Assembly: GCA_003354025.1 (NCBI GenBank)
Contig: PIVU01000001.1
Coordinates: 2,435-66,434 of the forward strand
Direction: 5' to 3'
DNA: 64,000 bases
From: Nitrospirota bacterium
Lineage (GTDB): Bacteria > Nitrospirota > Thermodesulfovibrionia > UBA6902
Notes under the pieces: generated by a model
The model's database searches: none
What the model was told of the DNA's origin: nothing
What the model saw: only the letters and a program-made list of their open reading frames with translations
Shown here: piece by piece, positions 19,199 through 55,943 of the stretch
Layout of the letters: every line of letters starts with the position of its first letter
How positions within the stretch are numbered: position 1 is the first letter of the stretch
Position numbers and translations under genes: made by a program

Positions 19199-19205
19199 GT
19201 GACGA

Positions 19206-37773: not shown

Positions 37774-37793
37774 AAAAAAAAAGGCTCAGAGCC
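37774..37793 (-). terminator. Possible weak intrinsic terminator for the two-CW gene, read on the minus strand.
   Basis: Minus-strand GGCTCTGAGCC followed by T9. Confidence 0.3.
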
Positions 37794-37832
37794 TTGCTCG
37801 AACCTTCGTTGAATTGGAATGTCTTTTCAGTC

Positions 37833-38144
37833 TTATTTTGCTGATGCGTGGTAGATTTGCCCGGGTTTCAGGAGGACAAAGTTGTCGGCCCCTTCTTCGG
37901 TTTTGATCTGCTTGAATACTTCACAGGACATGCATGATACTGACTTCTGGGCAAAATCACCCTGTACCTTGTCGCCGCAAAAAGTGCCTGCTATGGCCCA
38001 GCATATACGTCCCGCATTGTTGCCGCCGTTGATTCCGTCACATGAAGAATCGGTGGTGGCCGGGCATATACCTAGTTCGGAATTTTTATTCCCGCCGGGT
38101 TCTCTTCCGCACTTTTTAATGTCCCAGCAATTAACGTTTGACAT
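37833..38144 (-). CDS. Small cysteine-rich 'two-CW' domain protein.
   Basis: Two CW-containing cysteine motifs: NCWDIKKCG and CWAIAGTFCG...CMSCEVF. The RBS, AAGGAGG, sits 6 nt upstream of the ATG. Confidence 0.6.
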   Translation of the reverse strand: MSNVNCWDIKKCGREPGGNKNSELGICPATTDSSCDGINGGNNAGRICWAIAGTFCGDKVQGDFAQKSVSCMSCEVFKQIKTEEGADNFVLLKPGQIYHASAK

Positions 38145-38200: not shown

Positions 38201-38228
38201 TTATCGGAACAACAATAATAATTCTTTA
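38201..38228 (-). promoter_or_regulatory. Candidate sigma-28 (FliA) promoter for the two-CW gene.
   Basis: Minus strand reads TAAAG-N15-TCCGATAA. The same geometry appears upstream of flgM and of the che operon. Confidence 0.45.
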
Positions 38229-39336: not shown

Positions 39337-39378
39337 TTAGTATCCTGTTCCTCTTATATGTATAATGTCTGCAGTAAT

Positions 39379-39849
39379 CTAGGTGTCCAGTCCTGGAGAA
39401 TCACCAAGAAGATTGTCAAGGTCAATGAGTATAATAAGTCTGTTTTCAAGTTTTGCTATGCCTTTAATAAACTGGCTTTGAAGCTCTGCTGACATTGGCG
39501 GAGCAGGCTCTACACTATCAGCCGGGATTCGTAACACTTCAGAAACTGAGTCAACAATAAGGCCGTTAGTGATTCCCTGAATTTCCATGATAATTATCCT
39601 GGAAGTATCATCGGTAGGTCTGTCTTCAAAGTGAAATTTCTTCCTTAAATTAATGACGGGAATAACCTTGCCTCTGAGATTTATAACTCCCTCTACAAAA
39701 TCTGGAGAGTTGGGTACCTGGGTTATTTCTGTTATTCTATTGATTTCCTGCACATTTAGAATATTTACGGCATACTCTTCATTGCCTAGTGTAAATGTGA
39801 CAAGTTGAAGGACTTCCGTCCCTGCTGCTGTTTGTTCTGTTGTTTCCAT
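39379..39849 (-). CDS. cheW: Chemotaxis coupling protein CheW.
   Basis: 156-aa CheW-like domain (VLQLVTFTLGNEEYAVNILNVQEI). Confidence 0.85.
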   Translation of the reverse strand: METTEQTAAGTEVLQLVTFTLGNEEYAVNILNVQEINRITEITQVPNSPDFVEGVINLRGKVIPVINLRKKFHFEDRPTDDTSRIIIMEIQGITNGLIVDSVSEVLRIPADSVEPAPPMSAELQSQFIKGIAKLENRLIILIDLDNLLGDSPGLDT

Positions 39850-39874
39850 TGATTTAACCTCCTATATATATCGT

Positions 39875-41113
39875 CTAAAATCCAAAATCATTTAATAAAG
39901 ACTCAACATCCGATTGTGATACTTTATCTGCCGGACCGTTTGGTGCTTTTTCTGTTTTGTATTCATCGTACGTAACTGTAGTCGGTTTTACCTCGACATC
40001 AGCGTGGTCGTTTAAACCGAATTTAGTTATAAGTGTTAAGAGTTCTCCTTCAACACTACTGACAAGATTGATGACCTTCTTTATTGTCTGACCGGTGATG
40101 TCCTGAAACTGCTGTGCAGTCAGGATTTCTGTCATGTTTTCATCAAGAGCCCCTTTAAAGGCTTGAAGGTAAGCCACATCTTCATCATGTCCCTTAATAT
40201 TATTGAGATGTGTGGTGAAGTCCTCTTCTTCTTCGAAATACCGCTCAACTATCCCCATAGTTTTATTTGCGGCATCTTCTGTTTTAGAAATTACAAACTG
40301 GAGCTTGTCAACGGCATTAGGCACATCGTTTTCTGTAAGTCTTTGCAGCCCGCTATCAATAGCGCCCTTAAAGTCCTCAAGAGAATCATGCAGTTTCCTG
40401 GTGATTTTACCAACGTCCTTAAATATATCGCTGTCAGTTGCCTTAGTCAGTTTGCCAACGATTTCCTCCACTTTCTTATATTCATTATTTGAAAGGGCGT
40501 CCATGAACTCAAGGATTAAATCATATATAGCGTGCTTGGGATCATTCTCTTCAAGTTTGTCTGCGAGGTAGTCCTTGGCATTATGCAATTCCTTAATGGT
40601 CACTTTGCCGCCCATAGTCTCGACTTGCCGGGTAACTTCCACGTTTGAACCGTCTGCTGACTCTTTGATATCTACTATGGCGTCTTCCAGAAGACTCAGG
40701 TCTGCAATGGGGAGGAGTTTTTTAATATCTAAAAGAACTATTAGTTTGTTTTTTAACTTTGCGACACCTGCAATGCTGTCTTTATTATTGTTGACGAAAC
40801 TTTCGGGAGGCTCAATCTCCGACTGATCAACATTGACAACTCCTGTTATTCCATCAACTACTATACCGAATGTTATCTGGCCGGTTGCCAGAACTATGAC
40901 TGTGTTGCCGGCGTCCTCGCCATTGTCCGAATGTAACAGGTACTTGAGATTGACTACCGGTATGATAGTGTCTCTCAGGTTTGTAATACCTCTTACATAA
41001 GAGGGGAGATTCGGCAGGGCGGTTATTGACGGCATTGTAATGATCTCGCGTACATTTAGTATAGGTATCATGTATTCGCTCGAATTGATATTAAAACCAA
41101 TGTATTGTTGCAA
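39875..41113 (-). CDS. Fusion protein: an N-terminal CheW-like domain joined to a C-terminal CheZ-like phosphatase.
   Basis: Residues 1-140 have the CheW fold ([41 protein letters not shown]). The C-terminal half carries [36 protein letters not shown] and the catalytic [14 protein letters not shown]. These match CheZ [36 protein letters not shown] and AQDFQDLTGQVIKR. Confidence 0.65.
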   Translation of the reverse strand: [412 protein letters not shown]

Positions 41114-41315
41114 TGATACCTCCTTATATAGTGGCAGCGCTGCCGCTGTGTTCCTTATTTACTTTATTACAAATAATGGTTTTATGAAGCAAGGCGTTAA
41201 AAACATTAAGAATGTTAGGAAAACTGATTTTCATTGTTTATGTCCCCTTGTTAATGAAAATGATTTAATTGAAATAACTTCGGTCGTTAGATTATTGATT
41301 AAGTGAATTATCATC

Positions 41316-43313
41316 TTACACCTTTGATGTGATTTCCAGTAGATTACGTGACATCCCATTAACGTCTAAAATAAATACAACCTTTCCGTCTCCGGTAATA
41401 GTTGCTCCCAGAACATAGGACGCTGTTGAATCAACACCATCAAGCTGTTTGATAACAACTTCCTCCTGTCCCAGCAACTTATCTACGGCGATACAGAAAC
41501 GTTTCTCTCCCATGGAAATGACAACGATATACTTATGCTCAGAATCTTCATGCGCGCTGCCATTACCATTGCCGTTACCGTTGCCTGTCCCGAGAAGGGT
41601 GTTCAGCTCAAAGAGAGGACAGACTTTATCACGGATGACTATGACGTTTTGACCGGTAATGTTATCAATTTGATCGTTGGAGACCTTAAGGGTTTCCTCA
41701 ATTGGTGAAAGAGGTATAGCATATTTTGCGCCCGATACCTCAACCATTAGTGATTGAATTATTGCGAGAGTCAAGGGGATGCATATTCTGAATGTCGTAC
41801 CTACATCCTTTTCCGTTAATACTTCAACGTATCCGTTAAGTAGGGAAATGTTGGTTTTAACTACATCCATACCAACGCCTCTTCCACTAAGCTCAGTTGC
41901 GACTTCCTTGGTCGAAAAACCTGGCATGAATATTATGTCCGTGGCTGCTTCATCGGTCATTTTATCGACTTCTTCTTCGGTCAATACTCCTTTTTCAACA
42001 GCCTTTCTCTTTAATTTGTTGACATCCATTCCCTTGCCGTCATCGATGATTTCAATGACAACCTGGTTGCCTTTCTGGTATATGTTTATTTCGACCTTGC
42101 CCTTTTGCGGCTTACCTTTGGCAATCCTTTCCTCAGTTGATTCAAGTCCATGGTCTATTGAATTTCTCAATATATGTGTAAGAGGATCACCGATATGCTC
42201 TATGACCGTCTTGTCAACTTCAGTGCCTTCACCGGTAATCTCCAGTGCGACGTCTTTATTAACAGTAGCTGACATGTCCCTGACGAATCTTGGGAATTTT
42301 CCAAGCACTTTTTTGATAGGCTGCATACGGATTTTCATAACTGCAAGCTGCATGTCCGATGTTACCCTGTCAAGGAAGGAAACTGTTTCCATAAGAGTTT
42401 CCGTCATGGGGTCGTGAGAGTACTTCTGATCAAAATAATTTGAAATATTTAAAAGTCTGTTTCTTACAAGAACTACTTCACCTGCAAGGTCCATGACTTT
42501 GTCGATTCTCTCTACGTCAACTCTAAGGTTTTGGGCCACTTCTTTTGGTTTGGCAGCTGTATCTTTAGCCGGCTTTGGCGCTTCAGCAGTTTTTTGCACT
42601 ACAGGTTTGGATGGCGGCGCAGGATGTTTAACAGCCTGTTTTTCTGTTACGGGCTCGGCTGGCGGAGCAGGTTCTTCTGCTGATTTTGCAGTGCTTTCGG
42701 CAGGCTCACTATTTATTGATTCTTCTCTGGACAGGTCAGCGACTTTCATTGCTTCTTCGATCTGTCTTTCTATGTCATCCATTACGGGTTGAGTTTCTTC
42801 AGCAGGAGGAGATTCAATGCTCAGCTCCGGTTCTGCTACCGGTTCCGCAACTTCTACCTTTTCCTCCACCGGCTGTGTTACTTGCACATCTGCATCAGAG
42901 GTGGACTGTTCTCCTGAGGACTGACCTGTTGCAACATTTAAAGCTTCGTTTAATTCATTTACCAAAGGTGAGACATCTTCTTCTATTCCGTCTTTTGCAC
43001 TTAAGTGGCCAAGGAGAATTCTAAGCATATCGATAGACTTGAGAATGACGTCCATTAAAGGAGTTGATACGGAAATTTCGCCGTCTCTCAGTCTTTTCAT
43101 TATGTTTTCGGATGAATGTGCAACATCAACTACTGGCTGAAAACCGAGGAATCCTGCAGCACCTTTAATAGTGTGCATTGATCTGAATATTTCATTCAGC
43201 ATCTCATTGTCTTCACCCTTTTGTTCAAGTTCCACAAACAGAGGCTCAATTTTGTCGAGAGACTCTTCAGCTTCTGTTATAAACTCCGCTATTATTTCAT
43301 CCATTTCATCCAT
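41316..43313 (-). CDS. cheA: Chemotaxis histidine kinase CheA.
   Basis: Hpt domain (HTIKGAAGFLG), dimerisation and HATPase domains, and a C-terminal CheW-like domain. The linker contains a (GN)5 repeat. Confidence 0.9.
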   Translation of the reverse strand: MDEMDEIIAEFITEAEESLDKIEPLFVELEQKGEDNEMLNEIFRSMHTIKGAAGFLGFQPVVDVAHSSENIMKRLRDGEISVSTPLMDVILKSIDMLRILLGHLSAKDGIEEDVSPLVNELNEALNVATGQSSGEQSTSDADVQVTQPVEEKVEVAEPVAEPELSIESPPAEETQPVMDDIERQIEEAMKVADLSREESINSEPAESTAKSAEEPAPPAEPVTEKQAVKHPAPPSKPVVQKTAEAPKPAKDTAAKPKEVAQNLRVDVERIDKVMDLAGEVVLVRNRLLNISNYFDQKYSHDPMTETLMETVSFLDRVTSDMQLAVMKIRMQPIKKVLGKFPRFVRDMSATVNKDVALEITGEGTEVDKTVIEHIGDPLTHILRNSIDHGLESTEERIAKGKPQKGKVEINIYQKGNQVVIEIIDDGKGMDVNKLKRKAVEKGVLTEEEVDKMTDEAATDIIFMPGFSTKEVATELSGRGVGMDVVKTNISLLNGYVEVLTEKDVGTTFRICIPLTLAIIQSLMVEVSGAKYAIPLSPIEETLKVSNDQIDNITGQNVIVIRDKVCPLFELNTLLGTGNGNGNGNGSAHEDSEHKYIVVISMGEKRFCIAVDKLLGQEEVVIKQLDGVDSTASYVLGATITGDGKVVFILDVNGMSRNLLEITSKV

Positions 43314-43352
43314 AGTTTATCTCCATATCAGACACATTAAGTGGCAATGTAT

Positions 43353-43742
43353 TTACGCATTTATTTTTTCAAAAATCTTGTCCATTTTTTCTTTTAATAT
43401 TTCGCCGGTAAATGGTTTCACCACGTAGTTGTTTACGCCGGCCTGAATAGCCGTGATGACTTTTTCTTTTTCAGCTTCTGCCGTGACCATTAGTATAGGC
43501 AGCTCCTTAAGGTCCGGGTCGCTCCTGACTTTCTTGAGCAACTCAAGTCCGTCCATATTGGGCATGTTCCAATCACTTATCATGAAACCGTACTCAGTGC
43601 CCTGAAGCTTGCTGAAAGCCTGCTCTCCGTCCTCTGCTTCGTCGATATGCTCGTAGCCGAGCTGTCTAAGAAGGTTTTTGACAATTCTTCTCATGGTAGA
43701 AAAATCATCAACCACCAGGATTTTCATTTTAAAATCAGACAT
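43353..43742 (-). CDS. cheY: Chemotaxis response regulator CheY.
   Basis: [14 protein letters not shown]...[11 protein letters not shown]...VTAE...VVKPF. The start is set at MSDFK, which sits 8 nt after AAGGAGG. The ORF track begins 7 codons earlier, at 43763. Confidence 0.9.
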
Positions 43743-43746
43743 AGTA

Positions 43747-44127
43747 TCATCCTCCTTTGGCAAACATCTGCTTAATTATTGCTTTTATATTTTCTGCAAT
43801 GGCATCACCGGTAACCGGTTTAACAACATATCCGTTAGCACCGTTGCTGAATGCCTTTTGTCTTTCTTCTTCGTCATTTTCGGTCGTAACCATTAGAATA
43901 GGTAAATCCTCCCAGGTGGGATCGGATCTCAGGGTCTTAATAAGTTCCATTCCGTCCATATATGGCATGTTCAGATCAGTCATGACAAGGTTGACTACAT
44001 CAGTTCCCAGTTTTTCCAGCGCATCCAGTCCGTTTTCAGCGAATACCACGGAGTATCCCCTAGTTTTCAAATAGTGGCCGAGAAGCTTCCTTGTTGTCTG
44101 GCAATCGTCTACTATGAGTATTTTCAT
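43747..44127 (-). CDS. Second CheY-like response regulator.
   Basis: MKILIVDD...[11 protein letters not shown]...VTTEN...VVKP. Confidence 0.85.
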
Positions 44128-44194
44128 GACGCTGCCCCGGATGAAAGAGGATTAATTTGTCCGCTGAATTTATGTATGAACAAAATTTTCATGA

Positions 44195-45019
44195 TTACAC
44201 CTTCTGATACATGATTACTTTATTTGTAACACTCGGTCTGAATGCCCTTGTAACATTGTGAAGGCTCTCCGATGAACCGATAAACAGGTAGCCTCCTGGA
44301 TTTAAACAGTCATATAGATTAGACACGACTTTCTGCTTGGCCTTTGCATCGAAATAAATGAGAACGTTACGGCAAAAGATTACGTCCATTCCGCGCAATG
44401 ATTTAATTTTATTGTTATCTATAAGATTGATCTTGTTGAATTTAACAGTGTTCTTTACTGATGCATTTAACGAATAAGACTGTTTTTCAGGTGAGAAGTA
44501 TTTTCTTAGATAATTCTCGGGCATGTTCCTGATGGAGTATGAATTGTATATTGCTTTTTTAGCAGAGGACAGTACTCCTTCACTCAGGTCGGATGCATGT
44601 ATTTCGAACTTGTTGGCTGTAATGTTCTTTTCAGTTAGCATGATTGATAAAGTGTAGGGCTCTTCGCCTGTAGAGCATGCTGATGACCAGAGCTTTAGTT
44701 TTTGACCTGCCTTCTTTGTTGACATGATTTTTGGTATTACCAGGTCCGCGAAAACATCAAGCTGCTGGGGCTCTCTGAAAAAATATGTTTCATTTGTAGT
44801 TACCGCATCAAAGAGTCTCGTCAGTTCTGTGCCGTTTGAACTGAACTTTATTAACTTAAGGTATTCTTCAAAACTCTTTAACTGCTTTTCCTGAAGTATG
44901 CGGGAAAGGCGGTTTTCTATGAGGTACTTCTTTGTATCGGCAATATAAATGCCGCTTTGATCATATATATAGTCCCTCAGGTCTTTAAAAGTGGAGTCAA
45001 CAAGGGGGATGCTCAGCAT
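44195..45019 (-). CDS. cheR: Chemotaxis protein methyltransferase CheR.
   Basis: YFFREPQQLDVF...LWSSACSTGEEPYTLSIML, the SAM-dependent MTase motifs of CheR. Confidence 0.9.
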   Translation of the reverse strand: MLSIPLVDSTFKDLRDYIYDQSGIYIADTKKYLIENRLSRILQEKQLKSFEEYLKLIKFSSNGTELTRLFDAVTTNETYFFREPQQLDVFADLVIPKIMSTKKAGQKLKLWSSACSTGEEPYTLSIMLTEKNITANKFEIHASDLSEGVLSSAKKAIYNSYSIRNMPENYLRKYFSPEKQSYSLNASVKNTVKFNKINLIDNNKIKSLRGMDVIFCRNVLIYFDAKAKQKVVSNLYDCLNPGGYLFIGSSESLHNVTRAFRPSVTNKVIMYQKV

Positions 45020-46437
45020 GTTACCTCCGAATTGAAACCAGATGTATATCGTGAAGCGGATTGCTGTATGTTTTCATTGAATTCACTTGCTCTGGAAAAG
45101 AATAATGTTGAATTTATATTCATAAGCGAATTTATAAACTCATCAATCACATCATTGTACTGCTCTTTGTGCAGCATTTTCATAAGAGGTTCAAATGCAT
45201 CTGCTTCGCTGATTTTGCCAAGGGCTATCACAGCATTTTTACGGACATGGCTGTCCTCGTCGGAAATTGCATCTATCAGACACTCCTTTGCTTCACTGCT
45301 GTCTATTTCTCCCAGGGATTTAATTGATGACCTTCGAATGTCCCTGTATTCGCTGTTAAGAAGCAATATGAGGTCGGCGACGGCATCTTTGCACTGTAAG
45401 TTCCCGATGATTTCCGTTGCAATGACTTTCCCCCTGTATTTAAGAGAATCATTATTGAGAAGTTCTATCAGTGACTGATTACAGCCGAAGCTTTGAATTG
45501 CTTCCTTAATAACATACAGCCTGTCTTCATTATCAGGCTCGGACATGTCAAGAGATCCTGCCAGGTCAAGCAGGTCACGAATTGCAGTAGTTTCATTAAG
45601 GAGCACAAGGCCCTTTATTGCTATTAACCTGTCGTCCCAGTCATCTTCGGACAGCATTTTAATCAATATTTCTGAAATGCTTTTTTCAGACGGGATTGTG
45701 CCAATCTGTACCAGACTTTTAATGATTGATATTGTTTCGAATTCATTGGCTTCAGGCATGTGGTCGACTAAGGGCTGTGCTGCTTTTGGTGAGCAAATGT
45801 TGCCTAATGCTTCAATAGCGGCAAAGCGGGTTGTTTCAGAGGTGCTATTGAGAAGCTGAACAATAGTATCTACAGCGCTTTCATCTTTCAACTCAGTTAG
45901 CGACTCCAGTGCTGAAAAGCACACCCATTCTTCATCTTCGAGCGCTTTAATAAGCTGGGGGACAGCCTTTTTATAATGAAGTCTTCCCAGGGTCTTAGAG
46001 GCGGCGGCGCGTACGTTGGCGTTTGAATCACCTGTTAGCATTTCTACGAGCTTTTCTGGATATGTGCAGTACTCAATATCATGTATGAGGTCCAGTGCGA
46101 ATTTTCTAACATCATCATCTCTGTCGTTAAGAAGAACATAGAGAAGCGGGATTGTGGTCCTGCCCATTTCCTTCAGAATGATTAAGGCGGTATTGCGAAG
46201 AAAGGAGTTTTCCCGTAAAAGCGGCAGCACCATATATGCCGTACACTCTCCCTTGATTTCCATAAGAGAACGCATTGCCGCATCCTGTACACCGTAGTTA
46301 TCATCTCTCAAGGCTTTAATGAGAGGGTACACCGCACGTTCGTCACCTTCTGCAAGACCTTCAGCGGCAGCACGTCTGACTGAAGCATCTTCATCTTTGA
46401 TGTTTCTCAGGAATTTGTTTAGTTTTGCAGTGTGCAT
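45013..46437 (-). CDS. HEAT / PBS-lyase repeat protein encoded at the head of the che operon.
   Basis: Repeated units of the form VRRAAAEGLAEGDERAVYPLIKALRDDNYGVQDAAMRSL. Overlaps the cheR start. Confidence 0.7.
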   Translation of the reverse strand: MHTAKLNKFLRNIKDEDASVRRAAAEGLAEGDERAVYPLIKALRDDNYGVQDAAMRSLMEIKGECTAYMVLPLLRENSFLRNTALIILKEMGRTTIPLLYVLLNDRDDDVRKFALDLIHDIEYCTYPEKLVEMLTGDSNANVRAAASKTLGRLHYKKAVPQLIKALEDEEWVCFSALESLTELKDESAVDTIVQLLNSTSETTRFAAIEALGNICSPKAAQPLVDHMPEANEFETISIIKSLVQIGTIPSEKSISEILIKMLSEDDWDDRLIAIKGLVLLNETTAIRDLLDLAGSLDMSEPDNEDRLYVIKEAIQSFGCNQSLIELLNNDSLKYRGKVIATEIIGNLQCKDAVADLILLLNSEYRDIRRSSIKSLGEIDSSEAKECLIDAISDEDSHVRKNAVIALGKISEADAFEPLMKMLHKEQYNDVIDEFINSLMNINSTLFFSRASEFNENIQQSASRYTSGFNSEVTC

Positions 46438-46513: not shown

Positions 46514-46541
46514 TTATCGGTATATTAAGTTCATTTCTTTA
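46514..46541 (-). promoter_or_regulatory. Candidate sigma-28 promoter of the che operon.
   Basis: Minus strand reads cTAAAG-N15-ACCGATAA, about 75 nt upstream of the HEAT gene start. Confidence 0.5.
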
Positions 46542-46592
46542 GTTAAATGAGACGTACGGTTGTATGCTCTAATTACATGAATTAATAATCTG

Positions 46593-47018
46593 TTAAACAA
46601 TCTTCTGCTCCAGTACTGATTGAGATTTTACATCGTCGGCCTCAGTCTTCACCATGTTTCTGCCCGAGCGCTTTGCAAGGTATAATGCGCGGTCTGCCCG
46701 CTCGAAAACGGTGGTGCAGTCATCTCTTTTTTTAAACGCGCTAACACCGACACTGATTGTCAGCGGGATTTGAGTACCCTGATATGAAAAATTGGCATTG
46801 TCAATATAAGAGCGTATCCCTTCTCCAGCCTTCAGTGCACCTTCCAGTTCCCTGTTGCGGGTTGAGAGAGAATCAATATATTTTTTAATAACTTCCAGCG
46901 GAGAGTCCAGCCACTCCTGCGACAGTTCTTTAAGTATTGACAGTACCTCATCAGCAACTGCATATACTTTCTCCTCAAATTCCCCCTGAGTATCAGATAA
47001 ATTAATCTCTTCAGGCAT
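46593..47018 (-). pseudogene. Internally deleted paralogue of the downstream GGDEF gene. It keeps only the N-terminal helix and the C-terminal third of the GGDEF domain and has no GGEEF motif.
   Basis: EEKVYAVADEVLSILKELSQ and AGEGIRSYIDNANFSYQGTQIPLTISVGVSAF...ADRALYLAKRSGRNMVKTE align with the N- and C-terminal ends of the 451-aa neighbour. The coiled coil and catalytic core are missing. The ORF is nonetheless intact. Confidence 0.5.
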
Positions 47019-47157
47019 ATAATGCTCCTCCCGGTACCATTGCAGAATCGTAACTATATATATTTGTATATGTATACTGTGGTCATATAATTCCGTGTAT
47101 ATCTATTATCGGGATAAGGGAGGAATTCTTTAGGTATTTTTACTAGGTAAGTGAAGA

Positions 47158-48513
47158 TTATGAAGTAAGAGATTTCTGAGTGATGTCATCATCTTCTTTT
47201 ATCACATCTTTTTCTGTTTTTACGGTGTTTCTTCCTGAATTTTTTGCCAGATAAAGTGCATTGTCCGCTCTTTCCATGACCGATTCAACTGTGTCGTCTT
47301 TTCTGAATACACTTATACCCACACTAATTTTGAGGGGGATATTTCGGTTTTTATAAGAAAACATTGCATTGTCTATATATGATCTGGCGCCGTCGCCTGC
47401 TTTTTCTGCATCCTTTAAAGATGTATGTGGAAGAATAATGGCGAACTCCTCTCCTCCGTATCTCGATATAAAATCATTTACCCTCAGTTTCTCTTTCAGG
47501 AGTGAAGCCAGTTTCTTAAGGGCAAGGTCTCCAACTTTATGTCCGAATGAATCATTGATTTTCTTAAAGAAATCAATATCGCAAAACATCAGTGATGCAG
47601 GCACATCATATCTCCGGAGATTAGCGAGAGTTTCTACTACTTTCTGATCGTATGCTTTCCTGTTATATAAACCTGTCAGCTGATCACGCAGCGATTGCAG
47701 TTCAATTTCCTCGGCCTTCTTTTTGATCTCCTTGGCCTCTTTTTTTATACCCGATATTCTTGAGCTCATCTGTTCAAGAGTTGTTTCCTGTTCCTTTAAA
47801 TGGATCATGTCCTGCTCTCTTTTTTGGTCTATGCCCTTATTAATATTCTCGATTTTGCCAAAGACCGCACTTTTGAGCTTTTTCAGATTGTCCGTTATCA
47901 TTCCTGGAGAAGAGTCAAAATCTTCTTTTATCATAGACATATTGATAGAAATGCTCTTTTCAAACTCTCTGTCCTGGTTAAATTTATTTTGATGAAAGGA
48001 TAGTTCAGTTGATACATGCTCCTCTGTTTCTTCCAGGTAGCTGATTGTCTGGCGCATAAATTCTTCCAGCTCCTTATTCTTCAGATAAAGGGCATCAAAG
48101 TATATCTTTATATACTTAAGGAGTGAATCCAGTCTGCTGGCCGTATTCTCGAATAAATTCTTGTCATGAATCTGCTTCTTAAGATCACTGATTTCTTCAG
48201 TTAACATATCAGGCGCCATGTCTGAAAACTTATCAAGGAAGTTAGATGTCATGTCCTTTAAGCGGCTTATTTCACTATGTGTCTCCTGCTTAATGTCGGG
48301 GTGGTCTGCATGAATAGGCGGAAGGGGCTCTATAAGCATTTTCTGGACAGTGCCTTTTACTACCAGTTGTTCTGCTATTGCTTTGGCATTCAGTTTTTTC
48401 TTGTTGTCTTTAGAGAGCTGTTTAAGAATATCGAGAACTTCATCTGCGATTACATATATTTTTTCCTGTAACTCTGAGGAGTTATCTTCTGGTTGTCCCG
48501 TGTCCTGTTCCAT
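47158..48513 (-). CDS. Diguanylate cyclase: a long N-terminal coiled coil followed by a GGDEF domain.
   Basis: LTGLYNRKAYD...RYGGEEFAIILP, plus the I-site RVND. Confidence 0.8.
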   Translation of the reverse strand: MEQDTGQPEDNSSELQEKIYVIADEVLDILKQLSKDNKKKLNAKAIAEQLVVKGTVQKMLIEPLPPIHADHPDIKQETHSEISRLKDMTSNFLDKFSDMAPDMLTEEISDLKKQIHDKNLFENTASRLDSLLKYIKIYFDALYLKNKELEEFMRQTISYLEETEEHVSTELSFHQNKFNQDREFEKSISINMSMIKEDFDSSPGMITDNLKKLKSAVFGKIENINKGIDQKREQDMIHLKEQETTLEQMSSRISGIKKEAKEIKKKAEEIELQSLRDQLTGLYNRKAYDQKVVETLANLRRYDVPASLMFCDIDFFKKINDSFGHKVGDLALKKLASLLKEKLRVNDFISRYGGEEFAIILPHTSLKDAEKAGDGARSYIDNAMFSYKNRNIPLKISVGISVFRKDDTVESVMERADNALYLAKNSGRNTVKTEKDVIKEDDDITQKSLTS

Positions 48514-48594
48514 TATGGATATGACCGCTTCCTTTCAAGTTTATGACCACACTATCCCGGAGGTCACAAGTCCAGCTTGCAGATATTAATAATA

Positions 48595-48622
48595 TTATCG
48601 GTAAATGTGTCCATTTCTTTAG
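48595..48622 (-). promoter_or_regulatory. Possible sigma-28-like promoter for the GGDEF gene, with a spacer one base shorter than the others.
   Basis: Minus strand reads cTAAAG-N14-ACCGATAA. The -35 context, CTAAAGAAATG, is the same as at the che promoter. Confidence 0.3.
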
Positions 48623-48871: not shown

Positions 48872-49378
48872 ATGGCAGACGAAAAAGACGAAGTCCAGGA
48901 AGAGGCGACTGAGGCGCCGCAGAAAAAGGGGAACAAGATGCTGATTATAATCATCGTCGTTGTTTCCGTTGTCCTTGGCGCTGGCGGTATTATCGGCTAC
49001 ACATTAATGGCCGATAAGGGAACCGAAGGAGAGGAAGAGGCAGAGGCACATCAGAAGGAGGAAAAGTCCAAACAAGAGACGGTCATTTTTGCACTTGACC
49101 CATTTGTATTAAACCTTGCTGATCACGGGCGCTACCTGAAAGTTTCCATCCAGTTTGAAATTTCCGATGAATCAATGCATGATTTTGTTAAAGGAAAGAC
49201 TCCTCAGCTGAGAGATACTATTATTACCCTCGTCAGCAGTAAATCACTCAATTCAATATCAAGCCCTGAAGGGAAATTTCAGCTGAAGGATGAAGTGCTG
49301 TTCAGGGCGAACCAGATACTTGGAATGGAAAAAGATATTTTTAAAAACCTTTTCTTTACTGAATTTGTAATGCAATGA
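48872..49378 (+). CDS. fliL: Flagellar basal body-associated protein FliL.
   Basis: One N-terminal TM segment and the FliL core (ETVIFALDPFVLNLADHGRYLKVSIQFEI). Confidence 0.85.
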   Translation: MADEKDEVQEEATEAPQKKGNKMLIIIIVVVSVVLGAGGIIGYTLMADKGTEGEEEAEAHQKEEKSKQETVIFALDPFVLNLADHGRYLKVSIQFEISDESMHDFVKGKTPQLRDTIITLVSSKSLNSISSPEGKFQLKDEVLFRANQILGMEKDIFKNLFFTEFVMQ

Positions 49379-50352
49379 GCGACAAAATACTTTCACAGGA
49401 TGAAGTTGATGCCCTATTAAAGGGTGTAGCTTCCGGCGATATAGATACTGAGGATGCCAAAGACCAGATAATGGAGGGCGTCAGGCAGTATGACTTTACT
49501 AGCCAGGAGCGTATTATTCGCGGAAAAATGCCCGGTTTGGAAATGATTAATGACGGCTTCTCCAGGGCACTAAGAAGTTCTGTTTCATCATTTATTATGA
49601 AATACACTGATATTAGTATTCAGAATGTAGACACAATGAAATACAGTGATTTCATGAAGACTATTCCGATGCCGTCAAGTATCAATATATTTACCATGGA
49701 GCCCCTTAAAGGATATGCACTGCTGGTCCTTGAAGCTCCGCTGGTATTTGCGTTTATCGAATTTTTCTTTGGCGGCGCGAGCGCGCAGCATGTGAAATCA
49801 GAGGGAAGGGCTTTTACGCAGATTGAACAGAGGGTTATACAGAAGGTTGTTGACATTGCCCTGGCTGATATGACAAAAGCGTGGGAAGCTGTTGCGCCGA
49901 TCAACCCCAAATATGTAGGGTCGGAAATAAACCCGCAGTTTGTTTCTATTGTTACACCTGCTGAAGTCGTCATTAAAATTGATATCGATATTGAAATTGA
50001 AGATTTTGCCGGCAAGATGTTTGTCTGCATTCCCTATTCAATGATCGAGCCTGTAAAAGAAAAGCTCTATTCCGGGATTCATGGAGACAAGTTCGAGACT
50101 GATAATAGATGGTCGGAAGTCCTCAAAAAATCATTAGATGATACGTACGTTAATTTGTCTGTAGATCTGGGGTCAATGACGGTTTCCTTAAAGGACATCA
50201 GGGATTTTGAAGTAGGAAATGTGATTAATATGGGTAAATCAGTTGATAAAAACCTTATTGTCAAAGTGGAGGGTGCTCCGAAGTTTATGGGTAAGCCGGG
50301 ATTCAGTCATGGCAATCAGGCAATAAAGATAACACAGCTCATAGAAGAGTGA
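49375..50352 (+). CDS. fliM: Flagellar motor switch protein FliM.
   Basis: LSQDEVDALL N-terminal CheY-binding motif, the FliM middle domain and a C-terminal SpoA-like domain. Confidence 0.9.
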   Translation: MSDKILSQDEVDALLKGVASGDIDTEDAKDQIMEGVRQYDFTSQERIIRGKMPGLEMINDGFSRALRSSVSSFIMKYTDISIQNVDTMKYSDFMKTIPMPSSINIFTMEPLKGYALLVLEAPLVFAFIEFFFGGASAQHVKSEGRAFTQIEQRVIQKVVDIALADMTKAWEAVAPINPKYVGSEINPQFVSIVTPAEVVIKIDIDIEIEDFAGKMFVCIPYSMIEPVKEKLYSGIHGDKFETDNRWSEVLKKSLDDTYVNLSVDLGSMTVSLKDIRDFEVGNVINMGKSVDKNLIVKVEGAPKFMGKPGFSHGNQAIKITQLIEE

Positions 50353-50399
50353 CATTTATTAAGAATTAATTAGTTAAGAAATATTTGAAAGGAGTACCA

Positions 50400-50744
50400 A
50401 TGGGAGAACAGGAAACACAGCCAAATCCAGAGATCGACCAGCACGAGTTTAATGATCTGCAGGATGAAAATCAACAGTCTGTGTCAAGAGAGATAGACTT
50501 TCTGCTTGACATACCTATTGAGATCAGTGTTCAGCTGGGCGCATCGAAAATGCTAATAAAGGAATTGCTTCAGCTTGGACAGGGGTCGGTTATCGAGCTT
50601 GAGAAACTTGCCGGAGAACCAATGGAAATAATGGCGAATCACAGGCTGATTGCCAGGGGTGAAGTTGTAGTGGTGAATGAAAAATTCGGGGTCAGGCTTA
50701 CGGACATAATCAGCCCGACGGAAAGGCTTTCAAATTTAAAATGA
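50400..50744 (+). CDS. fliN: Flagellar motor switch protein FliN.
   Basis: SpoA domain (LLDIPIEISVQLGASKMLIKELLQLGQGSVIELEK). The start is taken at the ATG that follows AAGGAG. Confidence 0.85.
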   Translation: MGEQETQPNPEIDQHEFNDLQDENQQSVSREIDFLLDIPIEISVQLGASKMLIKELLQLGQGSVIELEKLAGEPMEIMANHRLIARGEVVVVNEKFGVRLTDIISPTERLSNLK

Positions 50745-51052
50745 CAGGCACTTATATACAGACTGCGGCAGCGCTTGCTTTTGTGATCTTCCTGATAGTG
50801 GCTGCAGGATACATGATGAGGAAGAAGCAGACCGGCTCCGGCCTCATGAGCATTGTAAGCTATCAGTCCTTTGGACCAAAAAAAGGGGTAACAGCGCTAA
50901 AGGTCGGAAAAGAGGTTTTACTTCTCGGCGTCACACCTAATGATATAAGACTGTTAAAGACATTTAAGGAAGACGAACTTGATTTGCCGGAAGAGAACGC
51001 CTTCCAGACCAAACTGGACAAATTTAAAGCAATTGGAGCGGGGAAGAATTGA
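50741..51052 (+). CDS. fliO: Flagellar biosynthesis protein FliO.
   Basis: Small single-TM protein sitting between fliN and fliP. Confidence 0.6.
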   Translation: MTGTYIQTAAALAFVIFLIVAAGYMMRKKQTGSGLMSIVSYQSFGPKKGVTALKVGKEVLLLGVTPNDIRLLKTFKEDELDLPEENAFQTKLDKFKAIGAGKN

Positions 51053-51774
51053 GAACTACCAAAGACAAATTGAAAATATTATGCAGCGTAGCCGTCTTTT
51101 TTGCTCTTACTGCAGCGGCATCACCTGTGGGCGCCATTGATTTAAAGGAAATAAATAATCCTCTAATCGAAACATTTCTTATCATCAGCTTCTTATCTTT
51201 TTTACCGGCTGTGCTTATTATGTTCACATCATTTACCAGGATAGTTATTGTGCTCGGTTTCCTGCGTCATGCATTCGGCGGCCAGCAGACACCTCCTACA
51301 CCGGTGATTATCGGACTATCACTCTTTCTCACCTTTTTTGTGATGTCCCCCACGATAGGTGTGATAAATGCAAATGCAGTGACTCCTTATATGGAAGACG
51401 AAGTAGAATTTTCACAGGCAATTGATAATGCCGTACCGCCGTTAAAAAAGTTTATGCTGAAACAGACCAGGCAGAAAGATATAGCCCTGTTTACAGGCCT
51501 GTCAAAGAAAGACTTGCCGGACACTCCGGAAGAGTTATCAATGAGTGTTCTTGTTCCGGCTTTTGCTATAAGTGAATTGAAAACGGCATTTGAAATAGGT
51601 TTCCTGCTGTTCCTGCCTTTCCTTGTAGTGGATATGGTCGTAGCGAGCATTTTACTAAGCATGGGTATGATGATGCTTCCGCCTGTAATGATATCACTTC
51701 CATTTAAACTGCTTTTGTTTGTGCTTGTAGATGGATGGAACTTGATTGTCGGATCAATGATGAGGAGCTTCTAA
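51049..51774 (+). CDS. fliP: Flagellar export apparatus protein FliP.
   Basis: Conserved FliP TM core (FLPAVLIMFTSFTRIVIVLGFLRHAFG...). Confidence 0.9.
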   Translation: MRTTKDKLKILCSVAVFFALTAAASPVGAIDLKEINNPLIETFLIISFLSFLPAVLIMFTSFTRIVIVLGFLRHAFGGQQTPPTPVIIGLSLFLTFFVMSPTIGVINANAVTPYMEDEVEFSQAIDNAVPPLKKFMLKQTRQKDIALFTGLSKKDLPDTPEELSMSVLVPAFAISELKTAFEIGFLLFLPFLVVDMVVASILLSMGMMMLPPVMISLPFKLLLFVLVDGWNLIVGSMMRSF

Positions 51775-52043
51775 TGACGATAGAAATGGTAAATGGTATA
51801 TCTGCAGAGGTTTTTAAAACCGTGCTTTATGTGGCCGGACCCCCGCTAATTATAGGGTTGGTTATTGGACTTATGGTCGGCCTTTTCCAGACCGTTACGC
51901 AGATACAGGAATTCACTCTGACATTCGTCCCGAAAATGGTAGGGGTCTTTGCGTGTCTTTTTATTCTTATGCCCTGGATGGCGGACAAGATTGTGACGTT
52001 TACAGCAAATCTGATAACGAATATACCGTCTTACATAAGGTGA
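51774..52043 (+). CDS. fliQ: Flagellar export apparatus protein FliQ.
   Basis: 89 aa with two TM segments. The start ATG overlaps the fliP stop (TAATG) and follows GAGGAG. Confidence 0.85.
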   Translation: MTIEMVNGISAEVFKTVLYVAGPPLIIGLVIGLMVGLFQTVTQIQEFTLTFVPKMVGVFACLFILMPWMADKIVTFTANLITNIPSYIR

Positions 52044-52047
52044 ATTA

Positions 52048-52824
52048 ATGAACGAGCTGCTATTAACAGATATGGCTGAATTCTCACACTACATTACGAA
52101 TTTTCTATTTATCCTCCTGAGGGTGAGTATATTTATCAGTTTCCTTCCTGTTATAGGCGGTAATCAAACGCCGGTACAGTTCAGGATCGGGTTGATGGTG
52201 TTTATATCATTAATGTTGACACCGGTTGTTAATTTTGAAACTGCGGAAAACAGCATCCCGATGATGGTCGTCAAGGAAATATTCCTTGGTATGGCGCTGG
52301 GATTGAGCGTCAGATTCATTTTCCTGGGTATCAATATGGCCGGAGCTTTTATCAGTCAGACTATAGGAATGTCTATAGCAACGGCGTTTAATCCGGAGAT
52401 TGGACAGTCCACACAGATAGCCGAGCTTATGGGTACTCTCGCAATACTGTATTTTCTCGTAATGGACGCTCATCATGACCTTATATTTGTTTTTGTGAAA
52501 AGTTTTGAACTGCTGCCCGCAGGACAGGTAAATGTTGAAGCCCTGGTTCCAAAGGTATTAAAAATGGGCAGTAAAATGTTTGTTCTGGCAATCAAGATAA
52601 GTGCCCCGCTCGTTGTAGGCGCTTTAATAACGTATTTATTGTCGGGGTTTTTATATAAGGCTGCCCCGCAATTAAACATATTCTTTATAGTAATGCCCCT
52701 GAATATATTTCTGGGATTTATGCTTATGATACTGAGCATCCCTATTTTTGAACATATTCTTGGTGTGCAGTTCAGCAACGTAAGGGATGAGATGGTTCGT
52801 ATAATCGCAATAGCTAAAGGATAA
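52048..52824 (+). CDS. fliR: Flagellar export apparatus protein FliR.
   Basis: 258-aa polytopic membrane protein placed after fliQ. Confidence 0.85.
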   Translation: MNELLLTDMAEFSHYITNFLFILLRVSIFISFLPVIGGNQTPVQFRIGLMVFISLMLTPVVNFETAENSIPMMVVKEIFLGMALGLSVRFIFLGINMAGAFISQTIGMSIATAFNPEIGQSTQIAELMGTLAILYFLVMDAHHDLIFVFVKSFELLPAGQVNVEALVPKVLKMGSKMFVLAIKISAPLVVGALITYLLSGFLYKAAPQLNIFFIVMPLNIFLGFMLMILSIPIFEHILGVQFSNVRDEMVRIIAIAKG

Positions 52825-52869
52825 TTATGTGTAGGGCGTATTCCAATACGCCCCTACAAAGGATAGAAG

Positions 52870-53910
52870 ATGTCAGAAGATAGTTTTCAAGAAAAAACAC
52901 AGGAAGCGACTCCGCGAAAAAAGGAGAAGGCCAAAGAGAAAGGTCAGGTCGCCAGAAGCAAAGAACTGACCTCGATGGCCTCCATGAGCGGCATAATCAT
53001 GCTTCTCTATTTTTCCGGTGGATATTTTATGACAAAACTGGCTTCAATGACAGGAGGAGTTTTAGGAATGAAGTATGGCACTGATCCGGGTCACGTATCA
53101 CGGATTGTGACGCTGCAGGGTTTCGAGGTGCTTGCTCCTTTCTTCATGGTAACTATTGTTTTAGGATTGCTGGTAAGTGTGGCCCAGGGCGGCTTCGTGG
53201 TAAAACCGCTGAAAATTGAGTTTGACAAACTTAATCCGTTTAAAGGGATTAAAAATCTTTTTTCAATGAAGAGCGTAACCGAGCTTCTAAAGAGCCTGAT
53301 GAAATTTGGAATAGGTGGATATATATCTTATTACATTATTAAAAATAATATGAAGATTCTACCAACACTTTCATCGATGGAGCTCGGCGGTATAGTGAAA
53401 GTTTCCGGTGATTTAATTATGGATGCCATTCTGATCACTTTTGGGGTTTTCATGATGATAGCCATCCTTAGTTATTTTCTCGATAAGGCCCAGCATGAAC
53501 GGTCATTGAAAATGACGTTTCAGGAAATCAAAGAAGAGCAAAAAGAGTCTGATGGTGATCCAATGGTCAAGTCGAGAATACGTAGTATTCAGAGGGAGGC
53601 CGCCAGAAAGCGTATGATGCAGGAAGTGCCGGAAGCTACTGTGGTCATTACGAACCCTCAGCATTTAGCGATTGCCATTAAATATGATGAAAAGGACATG
53701 GGAGCGCCGCAAATCGTTGCCAAGGGGGCAGGAACTGTTGCAGCAAAAATAAGGGAAATTGCGACAGAGCATGGTGTCCCTATTGTTGAGAATAAACCTG
53801 TAGCAAGGGCGTTGTACAAACAGGAACTTAAATCTTTTGTGCCGGAAGAACTGTACGTAGCAGTTGCCAAGATACTGGCATACATTTATAAACTTAAAGG
53901 AAATATATGA
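52870..53910 (+). CDS. flhB: Flagellar export apparatus protein FlhB.
   Basis: N-terminal TM domain and the NPTH autocleavage motif (VITNPQHLAIAI). Confidence 0.9.
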   Translation: MSEDSFQEKTQEATPRKKEKAKEKGQVARSKELTSMASMSGIIMLLYFSGGYFMTKLASMTGGVLGMKYGTDPGHVSRIVTLQGFEVLAPFFMVTIVLGLLVSVAQGGFVVKPLKIEFDKLNPFKGIKNLFSMKSVTELLKSLMKFGIGGYISYYIIKNNMKILPTLSSMELGGIVKVSGDLIMDAILITFGVFMMIAILSYFLDKAQHERSLKMTFQEIKEEQKESDGDPMVKSRIRSIQREAARKRMMQEVPEATVVITNPQHLAIAIKYDEKDMGAPQIVAKGAGTVAAKIREIATEHGVPIVENKPVARALYKQELKSFVPEELYVAVAKILAYIYKLKGNI

Positions 53911-55943
53911 ACTTCTTAGCGTTGCTTCACAAAAGAGAAGATGTAGTCATTGCATTGGCCATGGTATCAATTATTGCGGTCATGCTGCTTCCAATGCCGC
54001 CGTTTCTTCTTGATCTGCTGCTCACACTGTCTATCTCATTATCAGTAACGATATTGATCACATCTATCTATATTAAGAAGCCGCTGGAGTTTTCAGTTCT
54101 GCCGTCGGTACTGCTCATGGCAACTCTATTCAGGCTTTCTCTGAACGTTGCAACTACCAGGTTAATCCTTCTGAAAGGTAATGAGGGTGTTGGCGCTGCC
54201 GGTGATGTTATCAAGTCCTTCGGTAACTTTGTAGTCGGCGGTAACTATGCTGTTGGAATAATAATATTTCTGATTCTGGTTATCGTGAACTTTGTAGTTA
54301 TCACTAAAGGTTCGGGAAGAATTGCTGAAGTCGCCGCACGATTTACATTGGATGCCATGCCCGGAAAACAGATGGCAATTGACGCTGATTTGAACAGCGG
54401 CCTTATAGATGAAACCCAGGCGCGTGAGCGCAGGGAGGAAATTTCACGAGAAGCCGACTATTACGGGTCCATGGACGGTGCCAGTAAGTTTGTGAGGGGA
54501 GATGCGGTTGCCGGGCTGATCATAACAGCAATCAACATTCTTGGCGGACTTGTTATAGGGACACTGCAGATGGGTATGAGTGCGACCGATGCTGCGACAA
54601 CATACACTATACTTACAATAGGTGACGGTCTTGTATCCCAGATCCCCGCTCTATTAATATCAACTGCAGCCGGTATCGTAGTAAGTAGGGCAGGTTCGGA
54701 CAGTGATATTGGTCAGGAAATCAGCAAGCAGATTCTGGTTAACCCGAAGGTCATGTTTACTGTTTCAGGAGTTTTATTTGCTTTAGGTATTGTTCCGGGA
54801 CTGCCTCATATTCCTTTCCTCCTGATAGCATCAATCGCAGGAGGTATAGGTTATTTGCTCATACAGGAGAAGCCTGAAGAAGCATTGCCAGTTGATGAAA
54901 TGCATGAGGATAGCGCTCCCGGAGAGCCGATGATAGAGTCATTCCTTGAACTTGATCCTCTGAGTCTTGAGATCGGCTATGGATTGATTCCACTGGTTGA
55001 TGAAAGCAGTGGAGAGCTTCTTGGAAAAATCAAGGCAATGAGACGACAGCTCGCAACGGAATTTGGATTCGTTGTACCGCCGATCCACATTAAGGACAAC
55101 CTTCAATTGAGGCCCCACGAATACACATTCCTTATCAGAGGGATTGAAATTGTCAAAGGTGAAGTTATGATGGGAAGCTGGCTGGCCGTTGATTCGGGTA
55201 ATGCCGAGAGAATAGACGGAGTGCCGACCAAAGAACCTGCATTTGGACTTCCTGCCTACTGGATTGAAGAGAATGCCGTAGAAAGGGCCCAAATGTCAGG
55301 CTATATGGTAGTTGATCCGGCAACAGTAATTGGTACGCACATTACCGAACTGATAAGAGAGTATGCATGGGAACTTCTGACAAGAAACGAGACGCAAAAT
55401 CTGCTGGATAATATATCAAAGACTTATCCTAAAATCGTGGAGGAGCTTATTCCTACTAATCTTACTCTCGGCGCTGTGCAGCGTGTCCTGCAGAACCTTC
55501 TTAAAGAGAGGATACCCATTAAGGACATTATGGCGATATTCGATTCTCTGCTTGACCACTCTCCGAATGTCAAGGACCCTGAAATGCTTACGGAGTATGT
55601 TAGACAGGCGCTTTCCAGGACGATCACAAAGCAGTATATGGATGACAACGGTAAACTGCCGGTCTTTACAGTCGATCCAAACTTTGAGAGGATTCTGACA
55701 CAGACTGAATCCGGACAGATTAATCCTGATGTTGTTAACAAAATTGCCAAGAGCATTGAGGGAGTTCTTTCTTCAGGAAGTCTCCAGGGAGCACAGCCGA
55801 TAATTTTGTGTTCATCCAATATAAGAAGATTTTTACACAAGATTGTTGAAAGGATTTCATCGGCCATTATAGTTCTTTCAACATCAGAAATTATTCCGAC
55901 TACAAATCTGGACATAAGGGGAATGGTAAAGTATGAGAATTAA
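53907..55943 (+). CDS. flhA: Flagellar export apparatus protein FlhA.
   Basis: 678 aa with the FHIPEP motif region and a large cytoplasmic domain. Confidence 0.95.
   Translation: MNFLALLHKREDVVIALAMVSIIAVMLLPMPPFLLDLLLTLSISLSVTILITSIYIKKPLEFSVLPSVLLMATLFRLSLNVATTRLILLKGNEGVGAAGDVIKSFGNFVVGGNYAVGIIIFLILVIVNFVVITKGSGRIAEVAARFTLDAMPGKQMAIDADLNSGLIDETQARERREEISREADYYGSMDGASKFVRGDAVAGLIITAINILGGLVIGTLQMGMSATDAATTYTILTIGDGLVSQIPALLISTAAGIVVSRAGSDSDIGQEISKQILVNPKVMFTVSGVLFALGIVPGLPHIPFLLIASIAGGIGYLLIQEKPEEALPVDEMHEDSAPGEPMIESFLELDPLSLEIGYGLIPLVDESSGELLGKIKAMRRQLATEFGFVVPPIHIKDNLQLRPHEYTFLIRGIEIVKGEVMMGSWLAVDSGNAERIDGVPTKEPAFGLPAYWIEENAVERAQMSGYMVVDPATVIGTHITELIREYAWELLTRNETQNLLDNISKTYPKIVEELIPTNLTLGAVQRVLQNLLKERIPIKDIMAIFDSLLDHSPNVKDPEMLTEYVRQALSRTITKQYMDDNGKLPVFTVDPNFERILTQTESGQINPDVVNKIAKSIEGVLSSGSLQGAQPIILCSSNIRRFLHKIVERISSAIIVLSTSEIIPTTNLDIRGMVKYEN

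Follow-up and report, generated by a model that had tools for sequence, protein, structure and literature searches.

Which genes of a Nitrospirota flagellar and chemotaxis region are read by the late flagellar sigma factor, sigma-28 (FliA), and is the synthesis of cyclic di-GMP (c-di-GMP) among the functions that it would control? The question is raised by the 64,000 nucleotides (nt) of Nitrospirota DNA presented above, here called the window, which hold a flagellar and chemotaxis region of the Thermodesulfovibrionia class (the closest FliA loci bear those organism names). A preliminary description of this DNA had proposed that a single sigma-28-like motif ties the che operon, flgM, flgF, a gene for a protein with a two-CW domain and a diguanylate cyclase gene into one FliA regulon. 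We propose, with a probability of roughly 0.8, that the window contains a FliA/sigma-28 regulon of six predicted promoters with flgM and the che operon as its core, and that a coiled-coil diguanylate cyclase, the two-CW gene and probably a cheY/cheC-like/PAS-GGDEF operon are its additional members. The place of flgF is a different one and is discussed below.

The motif, its six sites and the factor that would read it

Six sites of the sigma-28 promoter class, with exact boxes of the form TAAA-N15/16-NCCGATA, are present in the window. They are listed with the interval between TAAA and NCCGATA (15 nt, N15; 16 nt, N16), the score against a position weight matrix (PWM) and the distance from the end of CCGATA to the start codon.

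18000..18026, forward strand: probable sigma-28-type promoter of the cheY/cheC-like/PAS-GGDEF operon; exact, N16, 12.8 bits, 141 nt
38201..38228, reverse strand: predicted promoter of the two-CW gene; exact, N16, 23.5 bits, 57 nt
46514..46541, reverse strand: predicted promoter of the che operon; exact, N16, 21.6 bits, 77 nt
47106..47132, reverse strand: predicted promoter of a cyclase remnant; exact, N15, 19.0 bits, 88 nt
48595..48621, reverse strand: predicted promoter of the coiled-coil cyclase, divergent from fliL; exact, N15, 22.3 bits, 82 nt
63559..63585, forward strand: predicted promoter of flgM, TAAAG-N14-GCCGATAG; N15, 26.9 bits (the top score), 50 nt

The consensus of the six is (C/T)TAAAG(A/T)(A/T)(A/T) at -35 and NCCGATA(A/T) at -10, with 15 or 16 nt from TAAA to NCCGATA. 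All six are intergenic, clipping at most the end of a neighbouring gene, and all are co-oriented with a gene start that follows the end of CCGATA at 50-141 nt. Four of the five sites given in the preliminary description were recovered as exact matches (63559-63585(+), 46514-46541(-), 38201-38228(-) and 48595-48621(-)), while two exact sites, 47106-47132(-) and 18000-18026(+), had been overlooked. Its account of the spacing needs correction, since the interval is not identical throughout: flgM, the cyclase and the cyclase remnant form the N15 class, and the che operon, the two-CW gene and the 18000 site form the N16 class, one base longer. The cyclase version, which had been described as one base shorter than the others, therefore has the same spacing as flgM.

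The strict 16-N pattern was matched at the two-CW gene and the che operon, and the strict 15-N pattern at the cyclase remnant, the cyclase and flgM, where 0.01-0.02 matches are expected per pattern. A looser pattern, TAAA-N14-17-CCGATA, gave seven matches in the window against 0.50 expected, a number reached in 0 of 100 shuffles, and added the 18000 site together with 56700-56723(-). The latter lies inside flhF with only 13 nt from TAAA to NCCGATA and was taken as a background chance match. In order to avoid circularity, the two-block PWM that was run on the window had been trained only on flgM promoters, taken from ten relatives. Its top six matches are the six sites listed, the next one scoring 10.9 bits. 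At 19 bits or more there were five hits in the window against a mean of 0.033 per block-shuffle (300 shuffles, never more than one), and at 12.5 bits or more the same 300 block-shuffles gave a mean of 0.89 hits. Five sites are therefore far outside chance, and the sixth, at 18000, is not by the matrix alone. The preliminary description had suggested such a matrix scan for the whole genome; on the scale of the window the matrix bears out four of its five sites.

It could be argued that the matches are a chance A+T-rich pattern in the A+T-rich intergenic DNA of a window of ~58% A+T. Shuffled sequence does reach a PWM maximum of 21.3 bits (30 shuffles), and the rejected flgF site at 58558 shows that look-alikes arise by chance. 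However, the shuffles never reach the observed count, and the five hits at or above 19 bits stand against 0.033; a motif equally frequent in random DNA, which the preliminary description had named as the outcome that would undo its proposal, was not what we found, the motif being far commoner than chance. Furthermore, when exact hits were tallied over 378.5 kb (the window and 20 related loci), 30 of the 32 were at orthologous promoter positions and 2 within coding DNA, the boxes being invariant where the spacers diverge. Four of the six hits that the script for this tally had labelled 'other' are promoter positions misassigned by a crude open reading frame (ORF) caller. The chance reading is already refuted for five of the sites, the 18000 site excepted, and we give it next to no credence as an account of the whole set.

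The sigma factor, its antagonist and the chemotaxis genes are encoded in the same window:

57818..58549, forward strand: fliA, sigma-28 factor, after flhF and flhG (TIGR02479 FliA_WhiG 249.6 vs 189.6; NF005413 225.4 vs 201)
63635..63934, forward strand: flgM, anti-sigma-28 factor (Pfam FlgM 61.6 bits; TIGR03824 57 vs cut-off 40.75)
38287..46437, reverse strand: che operon, encoding a HEAT-repeat protein, CheR, two CheY, CheA, a CheW-CheZ fusion, CheW and CheB (Pfam)

The flgM gene and the che operon are textbook sigma-28 targets, and at both the motif has been kept. At the orthologous position upstream of flgM, 10 of 11 genomes have it without mismatch and always with the N15 spacer; upstream of the che operon it is exact in 6 of 9 and differs by a single base in the remaining three, with N16 throughout. 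The che upstream alignment has a mean column identity of 42%, its invariant columns being the two boxes, and the che gene order is identical in the related loci L001-L007, L168 and L169. The reading of the motif as sigma-28-type is thus supported by the exact boxes at their two spacings (three N15 and three N16), by their excess, placement and orientation, by the cognate FliA and FlgM encoded in the window, and by the conservation of the motif at canonical late targets.

The FliA of the window is the factor that we infer to read these motifs. They could instead be real promoters read by a different sigma factor, for example a FliA/WhiG-like paralogue encoded elsewhere, and the expression of the genes would then be untied from flagellar completion. 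The visible genome amounts to 64 kb, and the gene-specific N15 and N16 classes could mark two factors. The solved structures nearest to FliA belong to the sigma-28 family, and the closest is the sigma factor of 6pfv (E 1.6e-51), presumably the c-di-GMP-controlled WhiG complex, which scores above E. coli FliA in its holoenzyme (6pmi, E 2.4e-44). Against a second factor, flgM, the source of the matrix, shares the flagellar cluster with fliA, the N15 (flgM) and N16 (che) spacings are both found at textbook targets, and FliA passes the FliA subfamily model. We therefore consider it unlikely that another factor is responsible, and keep FliA as the probable reader of both classes. One-base-longer spacers are reportedly tolerated in mutational work on sigma-28 promoters, which would fit the N16 class, and the conservation of N15 or N16 gene by gene suggests that spacing may tune promoter strength.

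Three further features of the che operon were observed. A TTATGCAT block with the palindrome ATGCAT lies 3' of the che -10 box (46500-46513(-) in the window), is present in 7 of 9 genomes and most often has the longer form TTATGCATGAG; it may mark the region where transcription starts or serve as the operator of a different regulator. The CheW-CheZ fusion (39875-41113(-), 412 amino acids, aa) joins CheW at residues 3-134 to the CheZ C-terminal region at 321-412 and is kept in all related che operons. The first gene of the operon, which shares 7 nt with cheR, encodes the HEAT-repeat protein (45013-46437(-), 474 aa), conserved in every relative.

The cyclases, the two-CW gene and the 18000 operon

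The genes that would extend the regulon beyond its core are the following:

47158..48513, reverse strand: diguanylate cyclase, 451 aa (Pfam GGDEF 156 bits vs cut-off 23.8)
46593..47018, reverse strand: second-cyclase remnant, 141 aa, no GGEEF; its Pfam match is confined to positions 90-160 of the GGDEF profile
37833..38144, reverse strand: two-CW domain protein, 103 aa, monocistronic (NF045718 106.1 bits vs cut-off 35)
37781..37795, reverse strand: terminator-like hairpin with a T-run, 3' of the two-CW gene
18168..20105, forward strand: operon for a CheY-like receiver (128 aa), a CheC/CheX-like phosphatase (214 aa) and a PAS-GGDEF cyclase (299 aa) (Pfam, NCBIfam)

The motif is exact upstream of the orthologue of the first cyclase in 7 of 8 genomes. 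The cyclase upstream alignment has a mean column identity of 44%, with its invariant columns in the two boxes, so that these form an island of conservation. The 451-aa protein begins with a helical region of ~265 aa, followed by a GGDEF domain with the arrangement RVND-5-GGEEF (inhibitory and active site). By profile score, GG(D/E)EF active site and RxxD it is predicted to have an active GGDEF domain (RVNDFISRYGGEEF is present), and a motif check found GGEEF in 117 of 120 homologues. Full-length homologues number in the hundreds, and those with a source name are all from Nitrospirota (metagenome-assembled genomes). A search of genome contigs with the cyclase protein returned 0 relatives, the genomic contexts having come via homologue look-ups. 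Solved structures resemble the protein in the GGDEF (catalytic) domain only. Cyclases of the DGCcoil family (PF20975) likewise have a long helical N-terminal region before GGDEF; membership of this family was considered and is not established, the scores of the window cyclase (20.9 bits) and of the homologue P0012 (24.9 bits) both being below the cut-off of 26.7, and several cyclase homologues have a precomputed PF20975 hit.

Downstream of the intact gene lies the remnant of a second copy. Its residues 1-35, 28-59 and 57-141 align to approximately 1-36, 111-150 and 350-434 of full-length paralogues, which corresponds to two in-frame internal deletions (equivalents of ~37-110 and 151-349); GGEEF, and with it the mark of an active GGDEF domain, has been lost and the gene's own promoter motif has been kept. 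The second-cyclase motif is exact in 2 of 5 cases and has one mismatch in 2 more (exact in L001, one mismatch in L004 and L005), and the motif of the only third cyclase, in L005, is exact (1/1). Eight contexts (L001, L002, L004-L007, L168 and L169) have a common layout, in which one strand carries fliL and the opposite strand carries 0-3 cyclases, the HEAT-che operon and the two-CW gene. Depending on the relative, there are 0 to 3 cyclase copies in the fliL-che interval (L001, L004, L005, L006 and L169).

This arrangement stacks three sigma-28 boxes upstream of che, and no intrinsic terminator was predicted on the minus strand from 48621 to 46437, so that transcripts begun at the cyclase promoters may run on into che. 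It could then be supposed that the cyclases are transcribed mainly from other promoters, that the boxes chiefly boost read-through into che and that cyclase membership of the regulon is a by-product of promoter stacking. The variable copy number, and the che operon of L169 that keeps its own promoter where no cyclase is present, would agree with this. On the other hand, every copy of the cyclase is preceded by a box of its own at a promoter-like distance of 58-136 nt, including the differently flanked orthologue in L168, and read-through would still place the cyclases under sigma-28 control. A scan of 46400-48900 with the sigma-70 consensus gave 6 sites against 7.6 in shuffles and identified no alternative cyclase promoter. 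An Rfam scan of the whole window gave nothing at gathering score, and thus no c-di-GMP riboswitch in the leaders. A by-product of stacking is in our view scarcely probable, and we favour sigma-28 control of the cyclases themselves.

Of 10 genomes, 5 have an exact motif upstream of the two-CW gene and 4 a motif with a single mismatch, mostly at N16 spacing. In one relative, L170, the gene is found in an unrelated neighbourhood and the exact N16 motif is found with it, 88 nt upstream. The 120 matches listed for the protein are 67-88% identical, and among these homologues seven cysteines and two tryptophans are invariant, C6-W7 and C48-W49 included. Relatives number 1341 among 1.84 billion representative proteins, many of them stand-alone and others with the domain as an N-terminal module. 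Ten long two-CW proteins were scanned and comprised five histidine kinases, three Ser/Thr kinases, one universal stress protein and one protein with no other recognised domain. This kinase-module architecture points to a cytoplasmic sensory input role, perhaps the sensing of metal or redox state. Structure prediction gave an unusable model (mean predicted local distance difference test score, pLDDT, 44.2; predicted template modelling score, pTM, 0.32), and no paper on the two-CW domain was found in the literature.

Two other observations concern the surroundings of this gene. In the window, a G-run/C-run inverted repeat at 37650-37760(-), ggggggtagagggaggatga...tcatcctccctctaacctccccc...gggggggggagg, lies between the convergent two-CW and flgE genes and may terminate transcription in both directions or belong to a repeat element. 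In L170, an operon for a rhodanese and a methyl-accepting chemotaxis protein (MCP) adjoins the two-CW gene and has an exact N15 sigma-28 motif (10539-10566(+)), and two further MCP genes (2607-4313 and 4503-5792(-)) have a one-mismatch motif with TTAAG upstream, so that TTAAG may be a tolerated -35 variant in this clade.

The conservation of the boxes might also reflect close kinship or another constraint, such as coding or the operator of another factor, rather than promoter function. Two sites lend themselves to this explanation. At 18000, the TAAAG box is within codons 4-6 (MKINFK) of a divergent rlmN-like gene, whose start codon is the CAT in the spacer, and the spacer, TTTATTTTCAT, is conserved too; at the che promoter, the additional conserved ATGCAT block could be an operator. 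However, the cyclase, che, two-CW and flgM sites are all non-coding and their spacers and flanks have diverged (42-44% mean column identity; proteins 48-79% identical), and the two-CW motif has persisted after the gene moved to the new neighbourhood in L170. As a general explanation, kinship or another constraint is very unlikely. The assignment of the motif to the che operon, the cyclase and the two-CW gene in the preliminary description has accordingly held up, with conserved boxes in diverged flanks at all three.

The 18000 site calls for separate treatment. Its motif is exact in 18 of the 60 related metagenomic contigs having enough upstream sequence, with mostly N16 spacing. Where the CheC-like protein has an identity of 68% or more, 16 contigs out of 22 have the exact motif; several of the 18 exact contigs are near-identical to each other. 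The three genes of the operon are linked in most related contigs. Since the -35 box is in rlmN-like codons, coding constraint explains part of its conservation. The GCCGATAT box of the site is outside the rlmN-like coding sequence and is likewise conserved. Taken together, a real sigma-28 promoter at this position is probable, with about two chances in three as a fair wording of our confidence. The rlmN-like gene (16924-18015(-)) lacks a Shine-Dalgarno-like sequence before its start, and where one would stand (18013-18030) lies the CCGATA box of the divergent promoter.

flgF and the sigma-54 genes

The remainder of the window is organised as follows:

up to ~17 kb: housekeeping genes, including those for PilZ, HD-GYP-like and REC-GGDEF-HD proteins (Pfam, NCBIfam)
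thereafter: two sigma-54 activators and a histidine kinase, then flgBC-fliEFGHIJ, fliK, flgD and flgE
48872..58549, forward strand: fliLMNOPQR-flhBAFG-fliA, followed by a 55-aa ORF, flgFGAHIJ and flgM
58575..58742, forward strand: Lys-rich small ORF, 55 aa, directly after fliA, with a strong ribosome-binding site (RBS); its codons M-P-I-D create CCGATA
58883..58897, forward strand: sigma-54-type promoter, CTGGCAT-N5-TTGCA, of the flgF-flgG-flgA-flgH-flgI-flgJ operon, just upstream of the likely flgF start

The inclusion of flgF in the FliA regulon by the preliminary description could not be upheld. The site on which it was based, 58558..58584(+), is a one-mismatch look-alike, TTAAG-N14-GCCGATAG, made up of an RBS and start codons, and it scores below 8 bits with the PWM. 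It reads TTAAGGGAGGTGTTGCTATGCCGATAG, of which the middle is the RBS GGGAGGTG and the -10 box is the codons ATG-CCG-ATA-G of the small ORF. In 14 relatives the equivalent position had no match, and across the whole fliA-flgF interval every candidate had at least one mismatch. The site thus lacks the exact boxes, the non-coding position and the conservation of the sigma-28 class. In its place, the sigma-54 element upstream of flgF is conserved in 14 of 15 genomes, and flgF therefore belongs to the sigma-54 tier.

The 55-aa ORF itself had tblastn hits in 7 relatives, and an N-terminus of the form M-A/P-I-E/D-G-L (...VKKERE) is readable in nearly all. Relatives encode the start of the ORF as ATG-GCN-ATT-GAA and therefore have no CCGATA. 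Its translation is conserved in most of the Thermodesulfovibrionia relatives. The ORF matched no Pfam or NCBIfam family, and it could be an unannotated small protein of the flagellar cluster.

Sigma-54-type elements of the form TGGCAY-N5-TTGC(+) were also observed just upstream of fliK (33738-33752) and of a TPR/AMIN gene (21688-21702), and a strict sigma-54 match was found upstream of none of fliL, flgB, flgD and flgE. The genes of the sigma-54 activators (20211-21602 and 25271-26578) and of a PAS histidine kinase (24072-25274) are close by. The window is also unusually rich in c-di-GMP genes, which encode a PilZ protein (1077-1409), a DUF3391+HD_5 (HD-GYP-like) protein (8182-9396), a REC-GGDEF-HD protein (14633-16213) and the PAS-GGDEF cyclase (19206-20105). 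No sigma-28 motif was found upstream of the first three.

The proposed regulon and known systems

In the FliA regulon that we propose, FliA would come from the gene that closes the flhF-flhG-fliA group, and FlgM would keep FliA inactive until the hook-basal body is complete, a step taken over from the model established in other bacteria. Free FliA would then direct RNA polymerase to flgM, the che operon, one to three tandem soluble coiled-coil GGEEF cyclases (here one intact and one deleted remnant), the two-CW gene and probably the cheY/cheC-like/PAS-GGDEF operon, whilst the rod and ring genes from flgF onward would be read from the sigma-54 promoter instead. If the cyclases are active, as we infer, c-di-GMP would rise, or would become locally available, once the flagella and the chemotaxis machinery have been built. 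The preliminary description had drawn such a link from one cyclase; with the remnant and its own predicted promoter, and with the operon behind the 18000 site, the predicted link is broader.

Several points weigh against this proposal. The whole case rests on sequence, and the scan covered 64 kb of the genome. The N16 spacing is one base off the canonical interval, and the cyclase orthologue of L007 has no motif upstream. The 18000 site has a PWM score that overlaps the shuffle range, in addition to a -35 box shared with rlmN-like codons. Finally, expression need not mean an active cyclase, since the predicted protein has an inhibitory site and a long coil that would be regulatory.

A more tentative extension is that flagellum completion, through the release of FliA, switches on, beyond the filament and chemotaxis genes, a dedicated signalling layer consisting of the copy-variable coiled-coil cyclases, the CheY/CheC-coupled PAS-cyclase and the two-CW protein. 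Such a layer might provide a primed source of c-di-GMP in swimming cells, for instance for surface or redox sensing, and the two-CW protein would be a new accessory sensor of the late flagellar and chemotaxis genes. We regard this extension as speculative and as distinctly less likely than not.

No paper was found on flagellar regulation in the Thermodesulfovibrionia, nor one describing pure cyclases under sigma-28 in Nitrospirota. Sigma-28 promoters with their core targets belong to textbook knowledge, and c-di-GMP enzymes in FliA regulons are already known. The value of the present proposal is in the extra members, for which the comparison of genomes gives good support, namely a tandem cyclase family of 0 to 3 copies, a two-CW protein and probably a chemotaxis-linked PAS-cyclase operon, in a poorly studied and mostly uncultured clade. 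If it is true, the two-CW family would have its first regulatory context. The flgM-trained matrix could also be used for regulon prediction across Nitrospirota genomes.

The class 3 promoters of E. coli and Salmonella and the SigD promoters of Bacillus have the same two boxes as the window sites, the same core targets (flgM and che) and a cognate FliA and FlgM. The window differs from them in its Nitrospirota host, in the sigma-54 promoters of its structural genes and in the interval of half of its sites, 16 rather than 15 nt and conserved gene by gene. The E. coli consensus is TAAAGTTT-n11-GCCGATAA, which is equal to TAAA-N15-GCCGATAA (PMC2859248), and the window sites have an A-rich -35 extension (TAAAGAAAT) in place of TAAAGTTT.

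With regard to c-di-GMP, a precedent for a GGDEF-containing protein is Legionella pneumophila lpp0952 (GGDEF/EAL, PAS/PAC), which was found by transcriptomics to be FliA-dependent (PMC5655016). It is a composite GGDEF/EAL protein of a gammaproteobacterium, whereas the proteins proposed here, predicted from sequence, are pure cyclases in tandem beside fliL and che. E. coli pdeH (yhjH) is a sigma-FliA class 3 gene (PMC5635695) and Pseudomonas putida bifA is partly FliA-dependent (PMC5300878), so that in these bacteria, as in the window, an enzyme of c-di-GMP turnover belongs to the late flagellar regulon. However, PdeH and BifA, as phosphodiesterases, hold the c-di-GMP level down while cells swim, whereas the window encodes GGEEF cyclases; no EAL phosphodiesterase domain (the PdeH-type module) was found among the regulon members of the window, only GGDEF. 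Since the window cyclases are without EAL or HD-GYP, the sign of the link would be opposite to that of pdeH and bifA. If this is true, the locus would represent a natural case of a flagellum whose completion is coupled to the making of c-di-GMP and not to its breakdown, contrary to the enterobacterial rule.

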